Shown here: positions 3,597 through 64,000 of the stretch, in pieces
How the letters are laid out: every line of letters starts with the position of its first letter
Numbering within the stretch: position 1 is the first letter of the stretch
Origin: an uncultured Chloroflexia bacterium
GTDB lineage: Bacteria > Chloroflexota > Chloroflexia > QHBQ01 > JADMIH01
Assembly: GCA_963797095.1 (NCBI GenBank)
Contig: CAWCNY010000003.1
Span: 384,001-448,000, forward strand
Direction of reading: 5' to 3'
Length of the DNA stretch: 64,000 bases
Notes under the pieces: generated by a model
What the model was told of the DNA's origin: nothing
Seen by the model: only the letters and a program-made list of their open reading frames with translations
Database searches by the model: none
Made by a program: the position numbers and the translations under genes

Positions 3597-3662
3597 AACG
3601 AGTGGCGAGTGGCGAGTGGCGAGTGATTATGCAGTACGCAGTACGCAATACTCACTCGTCAC
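3597..3662. repeat. Heptamer repeat cassette (GGCGAGT)n-(TACGCAR)n-ACTCGTC between convergent genes
   Basis: Read directly from the sequence. Confidence 0.85.
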
Positions 3663-5675: not shown

Positions 5676-7574
5676 TCACTGCCCTCCATACCGCCAGTCG
5701 TAATAGTGCCTCCCAACGTTCCCGAACTGCACCTGGAATCCTTCAGGAGCCTGCGGGTCGTATGTCACGGTGCGGCGCTCGAACACCTGCATCAGCACGT
5801 TGTGTGACTCGCCCCCAACCTGCACCGTAGCCCAGTAAGCCTCCGAGATCGGGTAGCCTGCGATATAGATCCAATCCCAGGTCTGCGACTTGAACCAGTT
5901 CAGGAACACATCTGGCACATTATGTCCCGTTTCGGGCAAATACGCGCCTACCGTCACGGTCGCGCCCAGGTCGGCGTTCTGCCCCACGGTGCCATCCCTG
6001 GCGAGGGTTGCATCCACGGGTTGCCCTGTCCTGTCCTCCGCTTTCGCCGCGTCGGTCCCCGCGCCCAACGAGTTGAACGTGGCGTAGGTAGGCGCATTGG
6101 CATCGTCAATATCGCCCGCCACCGGCACTTCGGCGGGCGTTCTCGCCTCGGACGCCGTCTGGCCCGTCGAGATCCGCCCCGTCACCATATCGCGCGCCAG
6201 CGCGCCGGGCACTACCACGAAGCGCGAAGGCTGGGGCGGGTTGGCAACTGGCAGGTCCATCCTCCCCTTGTCGAAGTACACCACCTGCTGCTGGCCGTCC
6301 TGCCCCTCGGCATAAGGCTCGGTCCCCGAGTAGATCGCGGTCGGCCCCCACAGATATGGCCGCTGAGCCGTACCGTTCGCCACAGGCAGGTCGGCCACGC
6401 GCCACTGGTACCAGAAGCCCGCGTCGGGCAATTGCAGGCGCGGCTTCGGCTGCCAGTTGGCGTTGAACCCGTCCACGATCTTCTCGCCACCCGACCCGTC
6501 CGTACGCACCAACCACGACTCGTGTGTATAGAGGAGGCTGCCGTCCTTCTGCCTGGTGGTGCGCGACACGCGCACAAGCATCGTCTTGGAATCCGCCGAG
6601 AAGAATGGAGGACCATAGTCGGTCACTTCGCCCTTGTAGGCTATGCTGTGGGGGTGCGACAGGATGATCTTGGCGTTCTCCCCATTGAAATCGGCCAGGA
6701 ACAGGCGCTGCCCATCGCTGCCCGCGCTATTGATCGCGTAGGCCACCTTGTTGATCCCCGTGGACCACGACACGCCCGCCCGCGCGATTGCCGTCTGCTT
6801 GACCGACTTTGCCACGCTCACGAACTGCCCGTTGGTCAGGTCGAGCACGCCGTACTCGATGCCGTCCGTGACCGCCAGGTAGCGCCCGCCCGGTGCCCAC
6901 CCGCCCGCGATCACGAACCAGTTGCGCGGCTCCCCAGGCAGGGCTTCCACGCCTACCGGCGAGCCGACCCCTCCCGCCACCTGCAGGATGCGCCCAGGCC
7001 ACCCGGCGGCTATGCGCGTGCCATCGGGCGACCACGCCACCGCCGCTGCCCCCGGCGGCAGTGAGGGGATATCCTCGCCACCCGGCACCAGCCACGAATC
7101 GCCGCCGCCTGACGGGATGATGTGCAGATTCCCCTTCGCTATCGGCGTGCCGTAGTTCGAGCTATCAACATAAGCGATGAAGTGCCCATCCGGCGACCAG
7201 AACGGCGGCGATGCCACACCCGTTGCCAGCATCTTGAGGTCCGAGCCGTCGGGGTTGACGGTGTAAAGTTCGGTGCGCTCGGTGGTCACGGCCAGCTTTT
7301 TGCCGTCGGGCGACCACGAAGCAAACCACACCCGCAACCCCTGCGTGACCTGCCGCTTGTCGGTGCCATCCAGGCGCATTACATAGAGATCACGCGCACG
7401 ATCAGGCAGGGAGTCGTCGGCATAAGAGAAGAAGTCGGGGGGAGATGTCGCGGCGGGAGGTTGCGTCTGCGCCGCTACAGTGGTGGCATGGAAGGCCGGT
7501 GCCGACAACAACACCAGGGAAACGAACACAAGCAAAAGCCGCGCAATGCGCTTCGGGAGGAGGTTAGCTGACAT
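5676..7574 (-). CDS. Secreted TolB-like (PD40) beta-propeller protein with C-terminal Chloroflexota surface domain
   Basis: Signal peptide; repeated WSPDG motifs; C-terminal YFDKGRM...GYPISEAYW...FERR...GNVGRHYYDWRY. Confidence 0.8.
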   Translation of the reverse strand: MSANLLPKRIARLLLVFVSLVLLSAPAFHATTVAAQTQPPAATSPPDFFSYADDSLPDRARDLYVMRLDGTDKRQVTQGLRVWFASWSPDGKKLAVTTERTELYTVNPDGSDLKMLATGVASPPFWSPDGHFIAYVDSSNYGTPIAKGNLHIIPSGGGDSWLVPGGEDIPSLPPGAAAVAWSPDGTRIAAGWPGRILQVAGGVGSPVGVEALPGEPRNWFVIAGGWAPGGRYLAVTDGIEYGVLDLTNGQFVSVAKSVKQTAIARAGVSWSTGINKVAYAINSAGSDGQRLFLADFNGENAKIILSHPHSIAYKGEVTDYGPPFFSADSKTMLVRVSRTTRQKDGSLLYTHESWLVRTDGSGGEKIVDGFNANWQPKPRLQLPDAGFWYQWRVADLPVANGTAQRPYLWGPTAIYSGTEPYAEGQDGQQQVVYFDKGRMDLPVANPPQPSRFVVVPGALARDMVTGRISTGQTASEARTPAEVPVAGDIDDANAPTYATFNSLGAGTDAAKAEDRTGQPVDATLARDGTVGQNADLGATVTVGAYLPETGHNVPDVFLNWFKSQTWDWIYIAGYPISEAYWATVQVGGESHNVLMQVFERRTVTYDPQAPEGFQVQFGNVGRHYYDWRYGGQ

Positions 7575-7645
7575 CAAGGTTCTCCTAACTCATGATCTGG
7601 GGGAAAGGTCCGGAAAAGGACAGGAGATTATAACACACATCCCCG

Positions 7646-7687
7646 TACAGACAGGAGCAGGGACGACCTCTAAGATCGTCCCTGCTC
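7646..7687. terminator. Stem-loop just downstream of the 7710-9678 gene
   Basis: GAGCAGGGACGA / TCGTCCCTGCTC inverted repeat; bounds approximate. Confidence 0.55.
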
Positions 7688-7709
7688 ACCCCTCGACGTG
7701 TGTGTTCCT

Positions 7710-9678
7710 CTATTGCCTGGCGTAGATGAAACTTTGCTCCGTACCGTTACTGTCGTTCCTGACCACAAGTTGCAACCTATTGCCCCGAGAGTTATCGAGG
7801 CTGATAGTGATCGAAGTCGCAGGCAATGAAGGGTGGGTAAAGGTCAGAGGCTCGCCGTCAAACGTGGTATTCAACGTGAGGATGGGAGTTGGGCACGGCA
7901 CCCCACTGCACGAGTCGAAGAGGTCCATATTCAGGGCATCGCCCTGTGCTGCTATCTGGAGCTTCAGGATGCCCCGAGGCTCCGGATCGGCGGCGACTTG
8001 CAACCAGGTGCCGGCGTAGTTGGCCGCTACGACCTTATGGAATCTGAGCTCCTGGTTGCCATCAAAGACGACCGCCAGCCTGTTCTCCGCCGCGTTGTTG
8101 AGCGCGATTCTGAACTGGTGGCCGTCAATTGTGATGTCGAACGGCTCGTTATTATATGCGGCGACGGCAGGCGGGCGGGGGGCACAGGCTCGCGCCGCAC
8201 GACTGGAACCATGTGACTCTGAGATTGGCAACATCCGGCTCGATCCAGAGCTTGCCCACGCTGCCGACCGTGTTATCATCGTTGAGCCATGTCCCGGCGT
8301 AGTCAGCGGGCCTGGCCAGGTGGAACGTGAGGTTCTGGCTGCCCCTGAACAACACGAACAGCTTGGGCGGCACATCGGCCACCAACGTCATGCTGAAACT
8401 GAACCCATTCAGCGTCACATTGAGGGGCACCCCGCTGAATGCGACGGTTCGCTGCTGGTTGCCGCACAGGCCGGTGCTACACGGGCTGAACCATTGCACG
8501 GTCAGGTTGTTATTGGCCGCCAGCTTGATCCATATCTTGCCGACGGTAGTTGTGCTTGCATCGTCGTTCACCCAGGTGCCTACAAAGCTGCGCGGGTCGG
8601 GCTGGATAATGTTGATAGTAGGCGTGGGAGAAGGTTGCGGCTGGCCTGTGGTGGGCGTGGCGGTTGGCTGCTGGGGCTGAGGCTGCGGCGGTGTGCCGGT
8701 CGGTGGCGCGGCGGTCGGCACAGGTGCTGTGGGCGGAGGAAGCGCACCTCCATACCGCCAGTCGTAATAGTGCTGCCCGATATTGCCCATCTGCACCCTG
8801 AACGCTGCGGGAAAGCTCGGCACATAAGTGACCACGCGCCGCTCGAACGCCTGGATCATCACATCCACGTTCGGCACATTGGCTATTTTCACCTTTGCCC
8901 AGTACGGTTCCGAGATCGGCAGCCCCGTCGCATAGAACCAGGGGTCCGATAGGCGGGCGTTGACGTTGCGGCCCGTAACAGGGTCGTACACTGGGCCTGT
9001 CTGGTTCAGGAAATCCCAGATTACCTTCGGGATGTTGTGCCCGGTGCTCGGCTCATAAAAGAGCATCTGGGTTCCTGGGTCTGCCGCCTTGCCGGGGTCT
9101 ACGCCCGTCTGTCCGTCCTTGTTGATAGTATCGGTGGCAAACTGACCGCCCCTGTTGTTGGCCCGATGGTCGCCAAGGGGAGTGTTGCTCACGCCCTGGA
9201 AGCTGACGTAGGTGGGGGCGTTGGGGTCGTCGGTGTCGGAAGCGAGAGGGATGTCGGCGGGAGGGCGATCTTCATAGCTGGAATTGCCGACCTGCATTTT
9301 GCCTGAGATAAGTTCGACCGTCAGCAGGCCGTTGGTCACGAAGAATGGGTTGCTCTGGTCCCCGTTGGGGTCGTTGATCTCCATGCGGCTCTTGTCGAAG
9401 TATTGGACAAGACGCTTGCCATCGACACCTTCAGCGTAGTCTTCGAGCAGCCCACCAGTGTTGGGAGCGGGCCCCCAGTAGTAGGAGCGCTGCACCTCCC
9501 CCGACGAGACCGGCAGGTCGGTGCGCTCCCAGGTGCGGAGGAACGCGGGGTGCGCGTAACCCGCCGCCTGGGCAGGCGCATCGAGCGTGCGCGCCACGAC
9601 CCCACCTGAGGTCGGCAGGGCCGCGCTCACTATTGCCAACAGCGCCAATAATGAAAGAGCTCGTCGCTGGCCTCGCAT
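7710..9678 (-). pseudogene. Secreted surface protein, paralog of 9850-11760, frameshifted by one extra base near 8177-8182
   Basis: ORFs 8152..9678 and 7710..8375 join into one domain series; 25 nt instead of 24 between the conserved Cys and Tyr of repeat 2, spanning a G6 run. Confidence 0.75.
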
Positions 9679-13112: not shown

Positions 13113-13222
13113 TGTCATCCTGACTACACCATCAACGAAGCAAAGACTTGTAGGGGCGAGGCATGCCTCGCCCCTACAACGAATTCTTCCTTCAACGCTG
13201 TAGATTTGTACTCAAGATGACA
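13113..13222. repeat. Nested REP-like element: TGTCATCCTGACTACA inverted arms around a 32-bp perfect GTAG palindrome (13148-13179)
   Basis: TTGTAGGGGCGAGGCATGCCTCGCCCCTACAA; outer arms complementary at 14/16; core recurs at 61305. Confidence 0.8.
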
Positions 13223-14994: not shown

Positions 14995-15110
14995 AGTTCC
15001 AAGTGCCAAATTCCAAGTTCCAAATTCCAAGTTCCAAGTTCCAAGTTCCAAGTTCCTGGTTGTTGCGATAATGGACAACAGACGATAGCCTCAACCAGGA
15101 ACTTGGAACT
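14995..15110. repeat. (TTCCAAR)x8 array with an 18-nt inverted arm forming a hairpin
   Basis: AGTTCCAAGTTCCTGGTT (15044-15061) pairs with AACCAGGAACTTGGAACT (15093-15110). Confidence 0.9.
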
Positions 15111-29972: not shown

Positions 29973-30596
29973 ATGATCTGGGAAAGCCGCAAGTGGCGGT
30001 TAATTACGAGAATCCTGGCATTGGTGACGGCCAGCATCCTGATGTTTGCGGTGGCGGGACCGGTTTCCTATGCTTTGCAAGACGATACGCCAAAGCACAT
30101 CACCTTAGCCCGCCAGCTTTACGACGAAAAGGGCAGCCCCGTCACCAATCGCTATATCTACGTGGAAGCTCCACCCGATCTGACGCACGTGGTGGCGACG
30201 GGCGAAGGCGATAGCACGCGCTATCTGATCCCCATCAGCGGCTTCAATCATGAGCTTTTTATTTACACAGACAAAGGCGGCTACCTCTTCCCGTTCGACT
30301 ATACCCCGGAATCGGGCTTCCTCACCGACGCCACCCCTGTCCGCTATTTCGGCAAAGTAACCACCCTTCAGAGCCAACCCAACTCGGACCAAGCAATCGA
30401 GGGCCTGGCCGCGCAAGGGATCAATATCGACAAAGATAACGCAATGGTGCTCGTCCAGGGCGAAGAACCAAGCGACTACCGGCCAATAGTGCCGGTAATG
30501 CCCGCCCTGGCCCTGTTCTGGGGCGCGACCCTGATAGGAGCCTGGCAAATCTGGCGGGGCCGTCGCCCCAGGCGCAGGCCGACTTATGCAGCATGA
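29973..30596 (+). CDS. Membrane-anchored hypothetical protein
   Basis: N- and C-terminal hydrophobic helices; GGAGG RBS. Confidence 0.65.
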   Translation: MIWESRKWRLITRILALVTASILMFAVAGPVSYALQDDTPKHITLARQLYDEKGSPVTNRYIYVEAPPDLTHVVATGEGDSTRYLIPISGFNHELFIYTDKGGYLFPFDYTPESGFLTDATPVRYFGKVTTLQSQPNSDQAIEGLAAQGINIDKDNAMVLVQGEEPSDYRPIVPVMPALALFWGATLIGAWQIWRGRRPRRRPTYAA

Positions 30597-30664
30597 CGAG
30601 TGACAAGTAACGAGTGACGAGTAACAAGTACCGCAATACGCAAGACGCAATAATCACTCGTCAC
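30595..30664. repeat. (RACRAGT)x5-(ACGCAAT)n-ACTCGTC heptamer cassette
   Basis: Same architecture as 3597-3662. Confidence 0.85.
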
Positions 30665-34416: not shown

Positions 34417-34477
34417 AGACAAAAGACGAAGGACGAAGGACGAACGAGATTGCTTTCGTCGTTAGTCCTTCGTCGTC
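34417..34477. repeat. (GACGAAG)n...(CTTCGTC)n heptamer hairpin between yebC and ruvC
   Basis: Read directly from the sequence. Confidence 0.8.
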
Positions 34478-50847: not shown

Positions 50848-51390
50848 CGGCGGCGCATGACCGTCTGAACCTGTGCTTTGTATGGTCGACCGGTCGATTT
50901 GTGTTCGCGCACCAGGTCACGCAGCTTCTGCTCGCCGACGATCGGATAGACGACATCACGCACGAGTTCATCCGGGTGCTCAAGGGACACCTCAGCTATC
51001 TGGTAGAGCAAACCGGTCTTGCCTGCGACACGCTTGAAGTCTTCCAGGAGGATCTTGTCGACACGCTGCTCGGCGGTGACACCAATCTTATGTACGAGAC
51101 CAATGAGCAGGTCAATCAGGCTGTCGGTTATCTCGTGGCTTCGCAGCGGGCAGAAAGCTGCAACCAGGGTTACCCGTATGGGGCGGGAATGGCGCCTCAC
51201 CTCTCGGACCGACTCGCTTGCTACTCGATCTCGATAGCGCTGCAACAGTCGGGGCGAGACTCCAGCGAAGAGGTCGGGCAGCAAGCTGGCCGTGATCTGT
51301 CTCAAACGCTGCAATTTGGCGATCTCTCGCAGCATACTGTCCAGCCCAATACGTCCAGGATCAGCCTTGAGGTCCAGGAATGTTACCTGT
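50848..51390 (-). pseudogene. Tn3-family transposase internal fragment
   Basis: LKADPG..GL....EIAKL, EITD.LIDLLI.LVHKI, VRDVVYPIVGE..L; no termini. Confidence 0.75.
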
Positions 51391-51562
51391 CCAGCAGTTC
51401 GTGCAGTTGATGCCGTTTGAGCCGTTCGTTGCTCATCGGACATAGCCAGACTTGGCCCGTTGCTAAGATTCCGACGGAATAGTACAACGCCCCAGATAAC
51501 TGCTCTGTTGTGACGCCCCATGGTGCCAGATAACTACCGGACAACGGGGATCCGGCCTCATC

Positions 51563-54299: not shown

Positions 54300-54334
54300 C
54301 GATGTATTGACAAACATCGATATAGTGCTATAAT
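54300..54334 (+). promoter_or_regulatory. ars promoter with overlapping operator; arsR probably leaderless
   Basis: TTGACA-N16-TATAAT with TG extension; CGATGT/ACATCG dyad over the -35; ATG lies 6 nt after the -10. Confidence 0.75.
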
Positions 54335-54340
54335 AGGCAC

Positions 54341-54712
54341 ATGGCAAGCGTAAAATCACAGCTAGACCCCCAAAGCATCATCCCTCTAGCTCAGGTGGAT
54401 AGTTGCTGCGTGGCTCCCGTCCGGATCGACACCGCCGAATTGGCCCCGCAGGTCAAGCTTCTCTCGGCCCTTGCCGACCCTACCCGCCTCGGTATCGTTG
54501 CTATGCTCTCCAAGTGTGATGAACCCTTGTGTGTATGCGAGATCGTAGACGGCTTCAACCTGGGCCAGCCTACCATCTCACACCATCTGAGATTACTTCG
54601 CGAGGCTGGGCTCATCGACTGCGAAAAGCGCGGCCTGTGGGTCCATTATTGGCTCAAGCGAGAGGCATTGCAGGAGATCGCAGGCTACCTGACCGGCCTC
54701 TCCTCCCCCTAA
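54341..54712 (+). CDS. arsR: ArsR repressor
   Basis: N-terminal CC, ALADPTRL, LCVCEI, SHHLRLLREAGLI. Confidence 0.93.
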   Translation: MASVKSQLDPQSIIPLAQVDSCCVAPVRIDTAELAPQVKLLSALADPTRLGIVAMLSKCDEPLCVCEIVDGFNLGQPTISHHLRLLREAGLIDCEKRGLWVHYWLKREALQEIAGYLTGLSSP

Positions 54713-54772
54713 CCCTACGCTCTCTTTTTTTGCCCAGTAAATCGAAAAACTTCAATATAGGAGGCGATCAAA

Positions 54773-55651
54773 ATGACTAATGTGCAATGGATGGACAAAC
54801 AAGCGATAAGAGAACAGGTCAGAGAGCGCTACAGCGAGGCCGCACGCCGGGTGACCGCCGGTGAAGGCGGGTGCTGTGGAGCAGACGATGGCTGTTGCTC
54901 CACAAGCGCCGGCATAAGTGCCAGTGCCATTACCTCCAATCTCTATACAAGCGAAGAAGCAGGACAGGTGCCCGTCGAGGCCTTCCTAGCCTCCCTCGGC
55001 TGCGGCAACCCCACCGCCCTCGCCCGCCTCAACCCCGGCGAAACCGTGCTAGACCTCGGCTCAGGCGGCGGTATCGACGTACTCCTGTCGGCCCGCCGTG
55101 TGGGCCCCACAGGTTTCGCCTACGGCCTCGATATGACCGACGAAATGCTGGCCCTCGCCGAAAAGAATCGCCAGGAAGCAGGAGTAACAAACGTCCAGTT
55201 CCTCAAAGGCTACATCGAAAGCATCCCTCTGCCCGACAACTCGGTAGACGTGATTATCTCCAACTGCGTGATCAACCTCGCCGCCGACAAGCGCCCTGTC
55301 CTGCGCGAGGCGTTCCGCGTTCTCAAGCCCGGTGGGCGATTCGCGGTGTCCGACGTTGTGGTGCAAGGCAGCGCCCCCGAGTCGATAGTCAAAAGCATGG
55401 AAATGTGGACAGGGTGCATCGCGGGCGCCCTCCACGAGGACGAATACAAACGCTTACTGGCCGAATCGGGTTTCACCGGCATCGGCATAGAGGTCACACG
55501 CCGCTACTCAACCGACGATATGGAGGGCTGGAGCAACAACGAAGATGCCTGTTGCGGCGGCCCAGCCATCTCTCTCAGCAGCGCCGACCTTGAGAAAGCC
55601 GGGGGCCTCTTCGTCAGCGCCTTCGTTCGAGCCGTCAAGCCGCTCAAATAG
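54773..55651 (+). CDS. arsM: Arsenite S-adenosylmethionine methyltransferase
   Basis: SLGCGNP, LDLGSGGGID, ISNCVINL, GCIAGAL. Confidence 0.95.
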   Translation: MTNVQWMDKQAIREQVRERYSEAARRVTAGEGGCCGADDGCCSTSAGISASAITSNLYTSEEAGQVPVEAFLASLGCGNPTALARLNPGETVLDLGSGGGIDVLLSARRVGPTGFAYGLDMTDEMLALAEKNRQEAGVTNVQFLKGYIESIPLPDNSVDVIISNCVINLAADKRPVLREAFRVLKPGGRFAVSDVVVQGSAPESIVKSMEMWTGCIAGALHEDEYKRLLAESGFTGIGIEVTRRYSTDDMEGWSNNEDACCGGPAISLSSADLEKAGGLFVSAFVRAVKPLK

Positions 55652-55685
55652 AGCACACAAACGCATTGCAAAGGAGGTGACAACC

Positions 55686-55754
55686 ATGACAACCACCGAC
55701 AAATGCCCATGCCCGTGCGACTGCGATGTATGCGGCCCATGCGATTGCTGCTAG
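55686..55754 (+). CDS. 22-aa cysteine-rich metallothionein-like peptide MTTTDKCPCPCDCDVCGPCDCC
   Basis: RBS AAAGGAGGTG; 8 Cys; lies inside the ars operon; followed by a 14-bp hairpin. Confidence 0.7.
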   Translation: MTTTDKCPCPCDCDVCGPCDCC

Positions 55755-55763
55755 GCCCACTTG

Positions 55764-55803
55764 AGCAGAGAGTCCACTCTGATGCACAGGTGGACTCTCT
55801 GCT
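55764..55803 (+). terminator. 14-bp intra-operonic hairpin (stabiliser or partial terminator)
   Basis: AGCAGAGAGTCCAC / GTGGACTCTCTGCT; no U tail. Confidence 0.65.
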
Positions 55804-55829
55804 AACATACCAGCATCAAAACAAAAGCA

Positions 55830-56384
55830 ATGTCTACATTTCTCACCACAATCGAACCCGCCAATCCAGGCGATCTCCCCGCCATCCTCAACCTGTTGGC
55901 GCAAAGCGGCCTCCCCACCGAAGGTCTCAGCAATCACCTTGATACAACGCTGGTGGCCCGCGAAGGCAACAAGTTGGTGGGTAGTGCAGCCCTCGAAGTT
56001 TACGGCGGCGCCGCCCTCCTGCGCTCGGTCGCCGTTGAGCAACGCCTAAGAGGGCACGGCCTGGGCCATCGCCTGGCACAAGCGGCCCTCACCTACGCCC
56101 GAACTCTTGACATCAAGCATATCTACCTCCTGACCGAAACAGCAGCCGACTTCTTCCCGCGCTTCGGCTTCCACCCGATCACCAGGGCAGACGTGCCCCT
56201 ATCTATCCGCCAATCAGTAGAATTCACAACCGCCTGCCCCGACACCGCCGTAGCAATGACCACCCAACTACAGCAACGGCCAATAAACAACAGAAAGAAC
56301 CAGGAACCCGGAACTCGGAACTCGGAACTACCCCCCACCCCATGCAAGCAAGACCCGCAACCCCCCATGACGCCCAGGCAATAG
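55830..56384 (+). CDS. arsN2: ArsN2-family GNAT acetyltransferase
   Basis: GLP..G, ALLRSVAV, YLLTETA..FF, S.EF..ACP..A; tail extended by a heptamer repeat. Confidence 0.85.
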   Translation: MSTFLTTIEPANPGDLPAILNLLAQSGLPTEGLSNHLDTTLVAREGNKLVGSAALEVYGGAALLRSVAVEQRLRGHGLGHRLAQAALTYARTLDIKHIYLLTETAADFFPRFGFHPITRADVPLSIRQSVEFTTACPDTAVAMTTQLQQRPINNRKNQEPGTRNSELPPTPCKQDPQPPMTPRQ

Positions 56385-56836
56385 CCCGCATCTACAACCA
56401 GGGCATCGAAGACCGCATAGCCACCTTCGAAACCCGCCTCCGTACGGCTGACGACATCCTCTCCTGGTTCGACGGCGTCCACCCTATCACCGTAGTCGAA
56501 GACAACGGCGAAGTGATTGCTTTTGCCTCCACTTCCACCTACCGCCCGCGAGATTGCTATGCAGGCATCGCCGAGTACTCCTTCTACGTGGCCCGCGAGC
56601 ACCGTGGACGGGGAGCTGGAGGCCTAGTCCTCCAAAGCCTGATCGAAGCGGCCGAGCAAGCCGGGTTCTGGAAGCTCGTGTCACGAATCTTCCCCGAGAA
56701 CAAAGCCAGCCTGCACCTCTCCCGCAGCCTCGGCTTCCGCGAGGTCGGCATCTACGAAAAACACGGCAAGCTCGATGGCACCTGGCGCGACGTAGTGATC
56801 GTAGAACTCCTACTTGACAACAACCTGACCTCATGA
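56342..56836 (+). CDS. arsN1: ArsN1 (arsinothricin/phosphinothricin-type) N-acetyltransferase
   Basis: IYNQGIEDRIATFET, YRPRDCYAGIAE, WKLVSRIFPEN, HGKLDG.WRDV. Confidence 0.88.
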   Translation: MQARPATPHDAQAIARIYNQGIEDRIATFETRLRTADDILSWFDGVHPITVVEDNGEVIAFASTSTYRPRDCYAGIAEYSFYVAREHRGRGAGGLVLQSLIEAAEQAGFWKLVSRIFPENKASLHLSRSLGFREVGIYEKHGKLDGTWRDVVIVELLLDNNLTS

Positions 56837-56870
56837 TATACTTCAAATTAGATTGATGCAATTTAGTTTG
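56814..56870 (+). promoter_or_regulatory. Internal promoter and dyad operator for arsR-arsC/aquaporin
   Basis: TTGACA-N17-TATACT; CAAATTAGATTG/CAATTTAGTTTG dyad. Confidence 0.7.
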
Positions 56871-56880
56871 GAGGAATATC

Positions 56881-57681
56881 ATGGCTACAACTATCGCTCT
56901 CCATGAGCCACCCACGCTGCTGAAGCTACTCGCCAACGACGTAAGATGGACCGTCCTATCGGCCCTGGCTCGCAGTGATTATCGCGTTCAGGAACTGGCA
57001 GGCATGGTAAGTCAGCCCCTGAATCTCGTCTCGTACCACCTGAAAAAACTGCGCGACGAGCGCTTGGTGCGCGAGCACCGCAGTGGGGCCGACGCCAGGG
57101 ATATCTACTACAGCCTCGATCACCCACGGTTGAACGAGATGTTCTTTGCGGCAGGTCGCGCACTGCACATCTCCGAAAGCGCCCCCGACCCCACCGAAAC
57201 CTCTACGGAACAATCCCAGAGCAAGGACCACAAGTCCCTCAGAGTGCTTTTCCTCTGCACCCACAACAGCGCACGCTCGCAACTGGCCGAGGGCATCCTG
57301 CGCAAAATAGGGGGCGACGAGGTTGAAGTATTCAGCGCTGGCACCGAGCCTTCCAGGGTTCACCCCGACGCGATCCGTGCGGCGGCCAGCATCGGCATCG
57401 ACATTAGCGGCCAAAGATCGAAGCATCTCGATGAATACCGGGACCAGCAATTCGATTATATGGTCACCGTATGCGACCGCGCCCGCGAGTTGTGCCCCAT
57501 CTTCCCCGGCGACCCCGTGAAAATGCACTGGAGCTTCCCCGATCCCGCCGCCATAGAGGACCCTGACAAGCGATACCAGGCCTTCCTCAGAACCGCCTCC
57601 GAGCTACGCATCCGCGCGCAGTACCTCCTGCAAATCATGGAGCACGACCGGCGCGAAAGCGCACACAACGCGCACAAGTGA
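56881..57681 (+). CDS. arsC: ArsR-like HTH fused to a thioredoxin-type (LMW-PTP) arsenate reductase
   Basis: N-terminal wHTH (VSYHLKKL); CTHNSARSQ, TVCD.ARE.CP, HWSFPDP. Confidence 0.88.
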   Translation: MATTIALHEPPTLLKLLANDVRWTVLSALARSDYRVQELAGMVSQPLNLVSYHLKKLRDERLVREHRSGADARDIYYSLDHPRLNEMFFAAGRALHISESAPDPTETSTEQSQSKDHKSLRVLFLCTHNSARSQLAEGILRKIGGDEVEVFSAGTEPSRVHPDAIRAAASIGIDISGQRSKHLDEYRDQQFDYMVTVCDRARELCPIFPGDPVKMHWSFPDPAAIEDPDKRYQAFLRTASELRIRAQYLLQIMEHDRRESAHNAHK

Positions 57682-58346
57682 ACGCCGACCTCTGGAGACG
57701 GGCCGGTGCCGAGTTTGCCGGTACATACGCATTAGTAACAGCAGGATGCGGCGCGATCACGGTCGATTCGCTCACGGGCGCGTTAGGCCACCTGGGCGTG
57801 GCGCTCGTGTTCGGCCTGATCATCACAGTCATGGTCGCCTCAACAGGCCATCTATCGGGCGCGCACTTCAACCCCTCCGTCACTCTCGCTTTCGCCCTCA
57901 TCCGCCACTTCCCCCTGCGCACTGTTCCCCTCTACATCGGCAGCCAGCTTGCCGGGGCCATAGCGGGCGCGCTCACCTTGCAGCTAATCTTCGGGCCGGT
58001 GGCCGCCCTCGGCGCGACCGTTCCAGCAGGCTCGGCCTGGCAAGCCCTGGCCCTCGAAACACTCCTTACCGCCGTCCTGATGTACGTGATCACAGCAGTC
58101 GCCACAGACACACGGGCCGTAGGCGAACTGGCAGCCATAGCCATCGGCGCGACGATTGCCCTCGACGCGCTGTGGGCAGGCCCCATAACCGGTGCCTCCA
58201 TGAACCCCGCCCGATCCCTCGGACCTGCCCTCATCTCAGGAGAGTGGCGCGACCACTGGGTCTATTGGCTAGGTCCAATAGCAGGCGCGATGCTCGGTGC
58301 CGGAGTGTACGGGTTACTCCGTGGCGCGAACAACAATAAGCAATAA
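57678..58346 (+). CDS. MIP family aquaporin/aquaglyceroporin (arsenite channel, AqpS-like)
   Basis: SGAHFNPS and GASMNPARS; located in the ars operon. Confidence 0.9.
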   Translation: MNADLWRRAGAEFAGTYALVTAGCGAITVDSLTGALGHLGVALVFGLIITVMVASTGHLSGAHFNPSVTLAFALIRHFPLRTVPLYIGSQLAGAIAGALTLQLIFGPVAALGATVPAGSAWQALALETLLTAVLMYVITAVATDTRAVGELAAIAIGATIALDALWAGPITGASMNPARSLGPALISGEWRDHWVYWLGPIAGAMLGAGVYGLLRGANNNKQ

Positions 58347-58968: not shown

Positions 58969-59238
58969 ATGGAGTACCTACGTTTCGAGTGGGGCGAGCA
59001 GAATCTGGAACACATCGCCCGGCACGACGTCGATCCCGATGAAGCAGAGGCCACTATCGATAACTACCCCCTGATCCTACGGACCGCCGACGACAAGTAC
59101 CTGGCCTATGGCCAGACTGACGAGGACCGCTTCCTCCTCGTTGTGTTTATCCGCAAGCCTGGGCAACGTGTTCGGGTGATTACGGCCCGAGAGTTGACAG
59201 AAGGTGAGAAGAAACAATACCGAAGGAGACGCAAATAA
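58969..59238 (+). CDS. BrnT family toxin
   Basis: FEW...N..HI..H.V...E, GQT...R.L.VVF, RVITAR. Confidence 0.88.
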   Translation: MEYLRFEWGEQNLEHIARHDVDPDEAEATIDNYPLILRTADDKYLAYGQTDEDRFLLVVFIRKPGQRVRVITARELTEGEKKQYRRRRK

Positions 59239-59239
59239 G

Positions 59240-59539
59240 ATGCCAAATAGAGTGCCGAAATTGCAATTACCCAGCTTTGCTAATGAGCAGGAAGCCGCCG
59301 AATGGTTTGATGCTCATGATACTGCTCCGTATATGGACCAACTGGAAGAGGTGCAGGAGCAGATCGCTGTGACCCGCTCCAACCCGACCAAAAAACCGGT
59401 AGGGCTGCGGCTTCGCAGTGACTATCTACAGGCGATCAAGCAAGTCGCCCAGAGAAAAGGTATCCCTTATCAAACGCTTATCCAGATGTGGTTGGTGGAG
59501 AAATTGAGGCAAGAAGCTCCGGAGCTGCTCCGGCGATAG
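59240..59539 (+). CDS. BrnA/CopG-like antitoxin
   Basis: P.F..E.E.AEWFD.HD; A..KGIPYQTLI..W. Confidence 0.88.
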   Translation: MPNRVPKLQLPSFANEQEAAEWFDAHDTAPYMDQLEEVQEQIAVTRSNPTKKPVGLRLRSDYLQAIKQVAQRKGIPYQTLIQMWLVEKLRQEAPELLRR

Positions 59540-61286: not shown

Positions 61287-61379
61287 CAGGCCGCAGCCAA
61301 GACGTGTAGGGGCGAGGCATGCCTCGCCCCTACAACCAATTCTTCCTTCCTACAACATACCGACTTTGCAATCGCCCTG
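61287..61379. repeat. GTAG REP palindrome (61305-61334) within a MITE-like unit ending TTTGCAATCGCCCTG
   Basis: Core and ~20-nt flank match 13141-13192; right end is identical to the island TIR. Confidence 0.75.
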
Positions 61380-61483: not shown

Positions 61484-61753
61484 ATGAGAACAGAAAGCGC
61501 CAAGCAAGAGGCCCTGAAGCGCCTCGCCTATATCGAAGGCCACCTACGGGGCATCCGCAAAATGGTCGAAGACGACCAGTACTGCGTTGACGTACTAAAG
61601 CAGACCTACGCGGTCCAGAAAGCCCTCGAAAAGTTCGAGAGCACCCTCCTACGTGGGCACCTCAATTCATGCGTCCCCGAAGGCATCCGAGAAGGCCGCG
61701 CCGAACAAGTAATAGATGAGCTAGCCGAGCTATACGAGCTAGCAAGGAAATGA
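61484..61753 (+). CDS. csoR: CsoR copper-sensing repressor
   Basis: RL..IEGH.RGI.KMVE.D.YC.DVL.Q; HL.SC. Confidence 0.92.
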   Translation: MRTESAKQEALKRLAYIEGHLRGIRKMVEDDQYCVDVLKQTYAVQKALEKFESTLLRGHLNSCVPEGIREGRAEQVIDELAELYELARK

Positions 61754-61839
61754 AACGTGACGAGTAACGAGTGACAAGTATGCGCCCTATTGCGCACTAA
61801 CCTACTGCCTGCCCAACTACTCGTCACTCGTCACTCGTC
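61752..61839. repeat. (GACGAGT)n...(ACTCGTC)n heptamer hairpin between csoR and copA
   Basis: Read directly from the sequence. Confidence 0.85.
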
Positions 61840-61853
61840 AAAGAGTCGTCTCC

Positions 61854-64000
61854 ATGTCAATCCAACAAACACAAACCACAGAAGATACCGAAGCCACCCT
61901 CCCCATAGAAGGCATGACCTGCGCTTCCTGCGTGCGTCGCGTCGAAAAAGCCCTTGCCAAACTGCCTGGAGTGGAACTTGCCAACGTCAACCTCGCCACC
62001 GAGCAGGCCACCGTCCGCTACAATCCCTCCCTCATAGGTCGCGACGAATTCCGCCGCGCCGTAGAAAAGGCGGGGTACGGCCTGGAAGACGAACCCCGAA
62101 CCACGCACGACGAAAGCTCCACACAATCCGAGGCTGCGCAGCTATCCAGAAAGAAGGGTCTTCTTTCGTCCTTCGTCTTTCGTCCTTCGTCCTCAACCGC
62201 GTCCCTCCGCCTCAAGTTCATAGTCAGCCTGATTGCCGGCCTCCTGATCATGGCCGGGATGTTTATCCCACTATCATGGCTCCCCATCTCAATAGAGGTT
62301 CGCTACTACATCATGTTCCTCCTCGCCACCCCCGTCCAACTGTGGGCAGGCTGGCAGTTCTACAAGGGCGCATGGCAGGCCACCCGCCACCTCGCCACCA
62401 ACATGAACACGCTAATCGCGGTCGGCACCTCCGTCGCCTACCTCTACAGTGTCTTCATAACCTTCTTCCCCGACACTGTGAGCCGCGCGGGTCTCCTGCC
62501 CGAAGCCTACTACGATACCTCCACCCTCATCATCGCCCTCATCCTAATGGGCCGCTATTTCGAGGCGCGTGCCAAAGGCCGCACAGGCGATGCCATCAAG
62601 AAGCTGATGGGTCTCGCACCCCGCACCGCCCGCCTCGTGCGTGGCGACCAGGAAATCGACGTGCCAATCGAGCAGGTACAACCCGGCGACCTCCTTCGCG
62701 TGCGCCCAGGTGACAAAGTACCCGTGGACGGTGTGATCGCCGAAGGTCACTCATCTCTCGACGAATCGATGCTCACAGGCGAGAGCCTCCCCGTGGACAA
62801 GACCCCAGGCGACAAAGTGATCGGCGCTACCATCAACAAGAGCGGCTCCTTCCTCTTCCGAGCCACCAAAGTAGGCAAAGACACCGCCCTCGCGCAGATA
62901 GTTCGCATGGTCGAGGAGGCACAAGGCTCCAAAGCCCCCATCCAGCGTCTTGCCGACGAGATCTCGTCCTACTTCGTGCCCGCCGTGCTGGTCCTCTCCG
63001 CCATTACCTTCGTCCTCTGGTTCTGGCTGGGCCCCGAACCGAAGTTCACCCTCTCCCTCATCTCGATGATCTCCGTCCTCATCATCGCTTGCCCCTGCGC
63101 GCTCGGCCTCGCCACCCCCACCGCCATCATGGTCGGCACGGGCAAAGGCGCTGAATACGGCATCCTGATAAGAGGCGGCGAAGCCCTCGAAAGCGCCCAC
63201 AAGATCAACGCCATAGTCCTCGACAAAACAGGCACCCTGACGCGAGGCAAACCCACAGTCACCGACATAATTACCGCCCAAAACAACGGCACGAACGACG
63301 ATACGCAATACGCAGTACGCAATACGCAATACGCAGTACGCAATACGCAGTACGCAATAACCCCATATCCCCCCAATCCCCTACTCCGCATTCCGAACTC
63401 CGAACTCCTCTCCCTTGTCGCATCAGCCGAAAAAGGCTCCGAGCACCCATTGGGCGAGGCAATCGTAAGCTATGCCACCGGCCAAAACCTGGTCCTCACC
63501 TCCGCGCACGATTTCCAGGCCCTTTCCGGCCTCGGCATCTCGGCCCAGGTAGACGGGCGCTCTATTCTGGTCGGCAACGAACGTCTCCTGATCGATAACA
63601 GCGTCACCCTCAACGGCCTTGGCGACCGGGGCCGCACCCTCGCTCTCGAAGGCAAGACACCCATGTACGTTGCCATCGACGGCCAGCCTGCTGGCATCGT
63701 CGCCGTGGCCGACACCATCAAGCCGGAGTCGCGTCAGGCCGTCCGCGAGCTTGAGGCCCTCGGTCTCGAAGTATGGATGCTCACAGGCGACAACGAGGCC
63801 ACCGCTCACGCCATCGCCTCACAGCTTGGCATCCGCAACGTCATCGCAAACGTCCTCCCCGACCAGAAAGCCGCCAGGGTGGCCGAGCTACAGGCCGCTG
63901 GCAAGAAGGTAGCGATGGTAGGCGACGGCATCAACGACGCCCCCGCCCTCGCCCGCGCCGACCTCGGTATCGCCATCGGCACCGGGGCCGACATAGCAAT
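61854..64000 (+). CDS. copA: Cu(I)-translocating P1B-ATPase, 3'-truncated by the window
   Basis: [37 protein letters not shown] and [10 protein letters not shown] in one frame. Confidence 0.95.
63302..63357 (+). repeat. (TACGCAR)x8 array inside copA, reading frame preserved
   Basis: Translates [19 protein letters not shown] between DKTGT and SEHPL. Confidence 0.92.

Follow-up and report, generated by a model that had tools for sequence, protein, structure and literature searches.

An ars operon in a 64,000-nt stretch of DNA from an uncultured Chloroflexia bacterium (hereafter the window) carries, directly 3′ of the arsenite methyltransferase gene arsM, a 22-codon ORF with eight Cys codons. 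It is very likely a genuine gene of minimal size that has been overlooked; it has one distant parallel and a plausible putative function. Judging from sequence and gene context, we consider it somewhat probable (roughly 55%) that the encoded peptide is an ArsR-induced, ribosome-made, metallothionein-like thiol buffer for trivalent arsenic.

The ORF, recognized by ORF reading and composition, occupies positions 55686–55754 of the forward strand, and its ATG at 55686 lies 34 nt past the arsM stop (55651), where a preliminary description of the window had placed a 22-residue, 8-Cys peptide. The predicted product has a mass of 2.3 kDa and a pI of about 4, is 36% Cys (8 of 22 residues), and contains neither His nor aromatic residues. 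Its cysteines form CxC, CxxC, and CC motifs, including a CPCP stretch and a terminal CC. Sixty 64-kb windows simulated with a Markov model contained no ORF of 15–45 residues with at least 33% Cys, whether or not a Shine-Dalgarno site was required, and 33 small ORFs reached at least 25% Cys in the same simulations. In the real window, this lower level is attained by 2 of 1801 small ORFs: the peptide ORF, counted here with the GTG start in its frame, and another ORF devoid of a Shine-Dalgarno site. TRF reports no tandem repeat in the Cys tract, and the Cys-Pro and Cys-Asp codon pairs that recur in it vary at synonymous third positions only, which, with such small numbers, is a small sign of coding selection.

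A Shine-Dalgarno site, located by a word search and by its anti-Shine-Dalgarno pairing energy, spans 55670–55679 on the forward strand and is separated from the ATG by a 6-nt spacer. This ribosome-binding 10-mer is unique on the two strands of the window. When pairing energies are computed against a generic anti-Shine-Dalgarno motif, the peptide start ranks first among the 1707 ATGs of the window (−16.1 kcal/mol, compared with −10.6 kcal/mol for arsM), so that the strong ribosome-binding site previously noted by eye is borne out.

The genes are arranged in the order arsR-arsM-peptide-arsN2-arsN1, then arsR/arsC-aquaporin, with neither arsA nor arsD among them. The repressor gene arsR (54341–54712, forward strand; NF033788, above cut-off) is preceded by a σ70 promoter with a 12/12 consensus match and a TG extension (54307–54334, forward strand; promoter scan), overlapped by an inverted repeat (54300–54319, forward strand; repeat scan) that resembles an ArsR operator and may act as one. 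The arsR transcript is probably leaderless, since the ATG lies only 6 nt past the −10 box; arsR has no Shine-Dalgarno site. A second ArsR-box-like element, putatively functional, precedes arsM at 54741–54756 (forward strand); it was detected by a motif scan with a pattern that we take to represent the ArsR box. The four ArsR cysteines, Cys22, Cys23, Cys64, and Cys66, are arranged much like the As(III) site of Corynebacterium glutamicum ArsR (CgArsR), made up of Cys15, Cys16, and Cys55 (PMC13236881). The arsM gene (54773–55651, forward strand) encodes a 292-residue protein scoring 345 bits against NF008823 (cut-off 263). Downstream of the peptide come two acetyltransferase genes on the same strand, arsN2 (55830–56384; NF040501) and the family A arsN1 (56342–56836; NF040503), both above cut-off, overlapping by 43 nt and without a Shine-Dalgarno site at their listed ATGs. 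ArsN2 continues for about 39 residues beyond the end of its family profile, across a 7-bp repeat (56270–56384). A second promoter (56814–56842; promoter scan) precedes the gene for a 266-residue ArsR-ArsC fusion (56881–57681, forward strand), identified by profile search with ArsC models scoring below cut-off. The last gene (57678–58346, forward strand) encodes a MIP-family aquaporin, its profile above cut-off, which from its context is likely an arsenite channel.

The ars region is flanked by a transposase fragment and by two apparent toxin-antitoxin pairs (50172–51521 and 58969–59539), which we take from their translations to be of PIN-domain type and BrnT-like. About 6 kb from the ars unit, at 61484–64000, a CsoR/RicR-like repressor gene is followed by a heavy-metal P-type ATPase-like gene. 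The window also contains two copies (13148–13179 and 61305–61334) of a perfect 30–32-nt intergenic palindrome, presumably REP-like, and many 7-bp tandem repeats, several of them forming inverted pairs between or inside genes (3599–3651, 14995–15056, 30594–30652, 34425–34474, 56297–56329, 61819–61840, 62162–62193, and 63301–63408). A cluster of 9- and 12-bp tandem repeats (44247–46436) lies upstream of a minus-strand gene (42164–44272) that we assume to be recombinase-like.

The peptide ORF is followed by a hairpin (55764–55803, forward strand; repeat search and folding), which starts 9 nt past the peptide stop and 112 nt past the arsM stop. Its arms, 55764–55777 and 55790–55803, pair over 14 bp with 100% complementarity, as already remarked in the preliminary description, around a 12-nt loop; the structure has a folding energy of −29.5 kcal/mol and is present in a single copy in the window. 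It has no U-tract, is not reported by intrinsic-terminator calling, and has no match in Rfam. A comparable 17-bp U-less hairpin is found 12 nt past the upstream S-layer-homology gene. The hairpin is likely a 3′ stabilizer or a U-less terminator, and the transcript-stabilizing role first attributed to it thus stays plausible as one of two options. Its position just past the peptide stop, together with the S-layer gene parallel, suggests that a transcript, or a stable segment left by processing, ends immediately after the peptide gene. By eye, a possible extended −10 element can be seen at the 3′ foot of the hairpin (55800–55830), absent from the promoter-scan calls, and it could yield a separate short-leader arsN2 transcript.

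Besides the catalytic-type Cys77, Cys165, and Cys215, the window ArsM contains N-terminal CC pairs (34/35 and 41/42) and a CC pair in a loop (260/261), and it has no C-terminal Cys tail. A tail with at least three Cys is present in 46 of the 80 GTDB ArsMs among the matches listed, and the pattern CC-x-P-x-CC fits 39 of 45 short tails from these loci. The 120 best ArsM relatives, of which the taxon-named ones are Chloroflexota or Chloroflexia except for one partial Actinomycetota protein, include a single Cys tail (10 rows unanchored), in a protein that falls outside the Chloroflexota group in the tree. Within the ArsM group of these 120, the internal loop carries two Cys in 95 of 108 anchored rows and four in 5 (12 rows unanchored). 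The spare CC clusters sit differently according to the ArsM group, in a C-terminal tail or, in the Chloroflexia group, in an internal loop; the loop clusters take the form CC or CxC..CC. Vicinal-Cys clusters thus appear repeatedly around ArsM, in several places, and it is most reasonable to view the peptide as their free-standing analogue. It shares their low-complexity Cys/Pro/Asp/Gly make-up and differs in that it is encoded separately, behind a ribosome-binding site of its own; its likeness to the ArsM tails does not go beyond composition. Titles and abstract openings, mostly outside subscription journals, reveal no paper on ArsM Cys tails. Two other arsM loci have a particular organization: in a Bryobacter MAG (L051), the arsM gene (871–2058) is fused C-terminally to a domain whose motif we take to be ArsD-like, and at locus L009 arsM stands directly 3′ of a gene (7165–7731) for a SigZ-like sigma factor with two CC pairs at its end, with no arsR detected nearby. 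A 436-residue protein with 19 Cys (P0118), considered as a fusion, is instead a frameshifted ArsM.

A GTDB scan with the window ArsM as the query gave at least 80 arsM loci with 55–66% identity, mostly from Acidobacteriota, Gemmatimonadota, and Pseudomonadota. A search for small ORFs, suggested with the preliminary description for the DNA downstream of arsM in Chloroflexota, was run beside arsM at the listed loci and revealed one convincing equivalent among the 80, in a Dormibacterota MAG (L040); no such ORF was found at the other 79, including the Ktedonobacteria loci L004 and L009, which belong to the ArsM group of the window. The L040 peptide has 26 residues and six Cys; its ORF possesses a ribosome-binding site and stops 3 nt short of arsM. 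It is the first gene of its unit, followed by arsM and acr3, with a divergent arsR and ArsR-box-like repeats upstream. All six Cys align with six of the eight in the window peptide, and 113 of 5000 composition-preserving shuffles align as well (p of about 0.02). The likeness is modest and may reflect convergence, and the positions differ, the L040 peptide being encoded before arsM and the window peptide after it. Consecutive Cys are absent from the L040 peptide, and its last 12 residues include no Cys. An ORF of the L040 type, by criteria set after L040 was seen, occurs in none of 4800 simulated 600-nt blocks. Three of the 80 listed loci are from Chloroflexota or Dormibacterota, and all three group with the window ArsM (SH-aLRT 87) in a quick tree of 40 rows, comprising 25 of the 80 GTDB loci, 12 of the 120 proteins, and 3 plasmid sequences. 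No credible peptide was detected at 19 plasmid ars or arsM loci, drawn from 60 arsM, 1034 ArsR/ArsC, and 214 arsN2 records; other Cys-rich candidates there have weak Shine-Dalgarno sites and were judged to be noise or internal starts in ArsM tails.

Searches of broader collections were blank. The peptide matches no family in Pfam (E up to 10) or NCBIfam, at a length of 22 residues that makes such searches poorly sensitive, and a protein search with the longer in-frame stretch that contains the peptide as the query gave no candidate among proteins of 30–36 or 37–121 residues. The sole match in the representative library, a repetitive 511-residue protein, was treated as compositional and not used. 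Three unnamed Atlas clusters of 33–48 residues scored 0.76–0.83, within the range of chance, with no named match, and one PDB zinc finger (E 8.1) is also a chance match. In plasmids and phages, tblastn and blastn detected neither the window nor the L040 peptide, a result weakened by the low-complexity filter, and three short DNA matches there are attributable to chance. These blank homologue searches carry little weight, because the sets begin at about 30 residues or filter low complexity. It is tempting, if on the improbable side, to extend the two loci to a hidden family of 20–30-residue ArsR-induced Cys peptides in Chloroflexota-related ars operons, which would act both as a native arsenic metallothionein and as a dedicated partner of ArsM, giving it As(III) or accepting MAs(III) from it, and would have been missed throughout as falling under the length limit of gene callers.

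In the proposed mechanism, arsenite would free the promoter from ArsR, the arsR-arsM-peptide message would be produced, with the hairpin either protecting or ending it, and translation from the very strong ribosome-binding site would ensure many copies of the apo-peptide. Three Cys are needed for As(III) and two for MAs(III) (PMC3877260), and metallothioneins bind As3+ through three terminal thiolates, with log K values of 8.3–10.2 for human MT3 (PMC10231319). Given such trigonal coordination, the eight thiolates of the peptide would accommodate about two As(III) at three Cys apiece, or as many as four MAs(III) at two. The MT3 values exceed the arsenic affinity of ArsR, 10^6.5–10^7.5, obtained by a different method (PMC10231319 and PMC13236881). 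The peptide would buffer free trivalent arsenic, including the MAs(III) released by ArsM, while disposal would rely on ArsM, ArsN, and the aquaporin; it would then represent a stand-alone version of the variably placed spare vicinal-Cys clusters of ArsM. ArsM turns As(III) into the more toxic MAs(III) (PMC6138428), so a co-induced sink would be useful. In fully loaded Zn7-MT3, Zn is not displaced by As3+ (PMC10231319), so Zn or Cu might occupy the peptide in vivo. Chelation of As(III) and MAs(III), the role put forward initially, is still the best reading and gains from the second arsM locus with a similar peptide; its conservation is thin (1 of the 80 listed loci, 1 of 3 in the group).

Four other readings were weighed against the thiol buffer. 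An unlikely one, by analogy with known arsenic carriers and thiol reductants, is that the peptide acts as a partner of ArsM and delivers As(III), accepts MAs(III), or re-reduces the ArsM disulfide in place of small-molecule thiols or thioredoxin. The peptide adjoins arsM both in the window and at L040, neither ArsM has the C-terminal Cys tail of 46 of the 80 listed GTDB relatives, the ArsM cycle proceeds via disulfides (PMC6138428), and ArsD provides a precedent for As(III) hand-over (PMC12607644). Yet among the 34 of 80 listed ArsMs with fewer than three tail Cys, the peptide accompanies that of L040 only, the window ArsM already has spare CC pairs, and a ribosome-binding site of −16.1 compared with −10.6 kcal/mol for arsM is more in line with a stoichiometric sink than with a catalytic helper. 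We found nothing specific to the ArsM chaperone role that the preliminary description offered beside chelation.

More doubtful is a general soft-metal or redox buffer for Zn, Cu, or Cd, made under arsenic stress and catching metal released by damaged thiol proteins rather than the arsenic. Motifs such as CxC and CC are generic, the metals bound by known bacterial metallothioneins are Zn, Cd, Cu, or Pb (PMC12193353), the Zn of loaded MT3 withstands arsenic (PMC10231319), and the CsoR-like repressor and P-type ATPase genes lie about 6 kb downstream. Both peptides belong, however, to ArsR-arsM units and not to a copper unit, and the window scan detected no such ORF near the CsoR gene.

That the ORF is nonfunctional or transient, either a low-complexity intergenic stretch or a recently split-off CC-x-P-x-CC tail of ArsM, appears very unlikely. 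Short intergenic repeats are abundant in the genome, the end of the peptide resembles ArsM tails such as those of L008, L023, and L057, and conservation is sparse; against this, the ORF has the strongest ribosome-binding site in 64 kb and no tandem repeat. The gene-fission variant arose because the window ArsM has no tail while the peptide end looks like one. It was rejected: the best three of 45 tails are matched by 150, 227, and 383 of 2000 shuffles, not beyond composition, and the single tail among the 120 best relatives (10 rows unanchored) is outside the Chloroflexota group.

The least probable reading, by analogy with Cys-codon attenuators, is a cis-acting leader in which stalling on the Cys codons, upon thiol depletion or arsenic binding to the nascent chain, would control the hairpin and arsN2-arsN1; two consecutive Cys such as those ending the peptide can suffice (bioRxiv 10.1101/834739), the hairpin starts 9 nt downstream, and the L040 ORF is a first gene ending 3 nt before arsM, but we lowered this reading because the hairpin stays paired (probability 0.99 with a modeled ribosome at codons 7, 13, 16, and 21, and 0.71 at the stop), no alternative duplex is stronger than shuffles (equalled by 65, 170, 181, and 19 of 200), and at arsN2 there is no Shine-Dalgarno site that could be hidden. 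In addition, the window ORF is leadered and third in its unit, and in the L040 peptide no two Cys are adjacent and the 12 final residues are all non-Cys.

If the thiol-buffer reading is correct, the 22 residues would make up a minimal natural chelator of As(III), amenable to synthesis and testing within days. Such a peptide could account for the tolerance of arsM carriers to the MAs(III) that they make themselves, and it would imply that genes of fewer than 30 codons are missing from inventories of ars operons. The known ars systems export, reduce, methylate, oxidize, or acetylate arsenicals, and sequestration by a gene-encoded peptide is absent from the ars genes presented in the reviews consulted, PMC6138428 and PMC12607644 among them. 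Titles and abstract openings, mostly outside subscription journals, mention no native metallothionein in an ars operon.

The peptide has the compositional features of metallothioneins: a low mass, about 30% Cys in CxC, CxxC, and CC motifs, and no aromatics. With the bacterial metallothioneins SmtA/BmtA/PmtA and MymT it has in common that it is small, gene-encoded, and Cys-rich with the same three motifs, and, like smtA, it is placed under a repressor of the ArsR/SmtB family (PMC12193353). It differs in its setting, an arsenic operon beside arsM, in its length (22 residues compared with 56–70), and in the absence of His, present in almost all studied bacterial metallothioneins (PMC12193353), and of aromatics. 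It was not assigned to the SmtA/BmtA/PmtA group, whose members have 56–70 residues with His and central aromatics (PMC12193353), as no profile matches it, nor to the copper-repressor-controlled MymT (PMC11672702 and PMC13519478), since it has no family match and belongs to the ars unit, with some 6 kb between it and the CsoR-like gene. Mammalian MT1–MT3 likewise have about 30% Cys and no aromatics, and their trigonal As-thiolate binding is a chemical precedent (PMC10231319). The likeness between TCPCP of MT3 (PMC10231319) and CPCP of the peptide is taken as convergent: the peptide is one third the size of the mammalian proteins, a single mini-domain, with no evidence of homology.

Mycobacterial polycysteine attenuators, unannotated short ORFs, are also Cys-rich and located inside operons (bioRxiv 10.1101/834739). 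Two or more consecutive Cys codons, as expected of this class, are present in the window peptide (terminal CC) and absent from that of L040. The window ORF was not assigned to this class: it is leadered and internal instead of a leaderless first ORF, its Cys alternate, no switchable structure or ORF-dependent duplex hiding a downstream ribosome-binding site was detected, and the downstream genes are outside cysteine metabolism. ArsD, an As(III) binder acting through vicinal Cys and encoded in ars operons (PMC12607644), is comparable to the peptide in its location and in the binding predicted by analogy. It differs in being a folded protein of about 120 residues with a Cys12/13/18 site that serves ArsA (PMC12607644); at 22 residues, with no family match and no arsA or arsD in the operon, the peptide is not an ArsD. 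Phytochelatins, short As(III) chelators with alternating Cys (PMC9917255), are likewise comparable to the chelator envisaged here, with the difference that they are enzymatically made γ-Glu-Cys polymers, whereas the peptide would be a ribosomal product.
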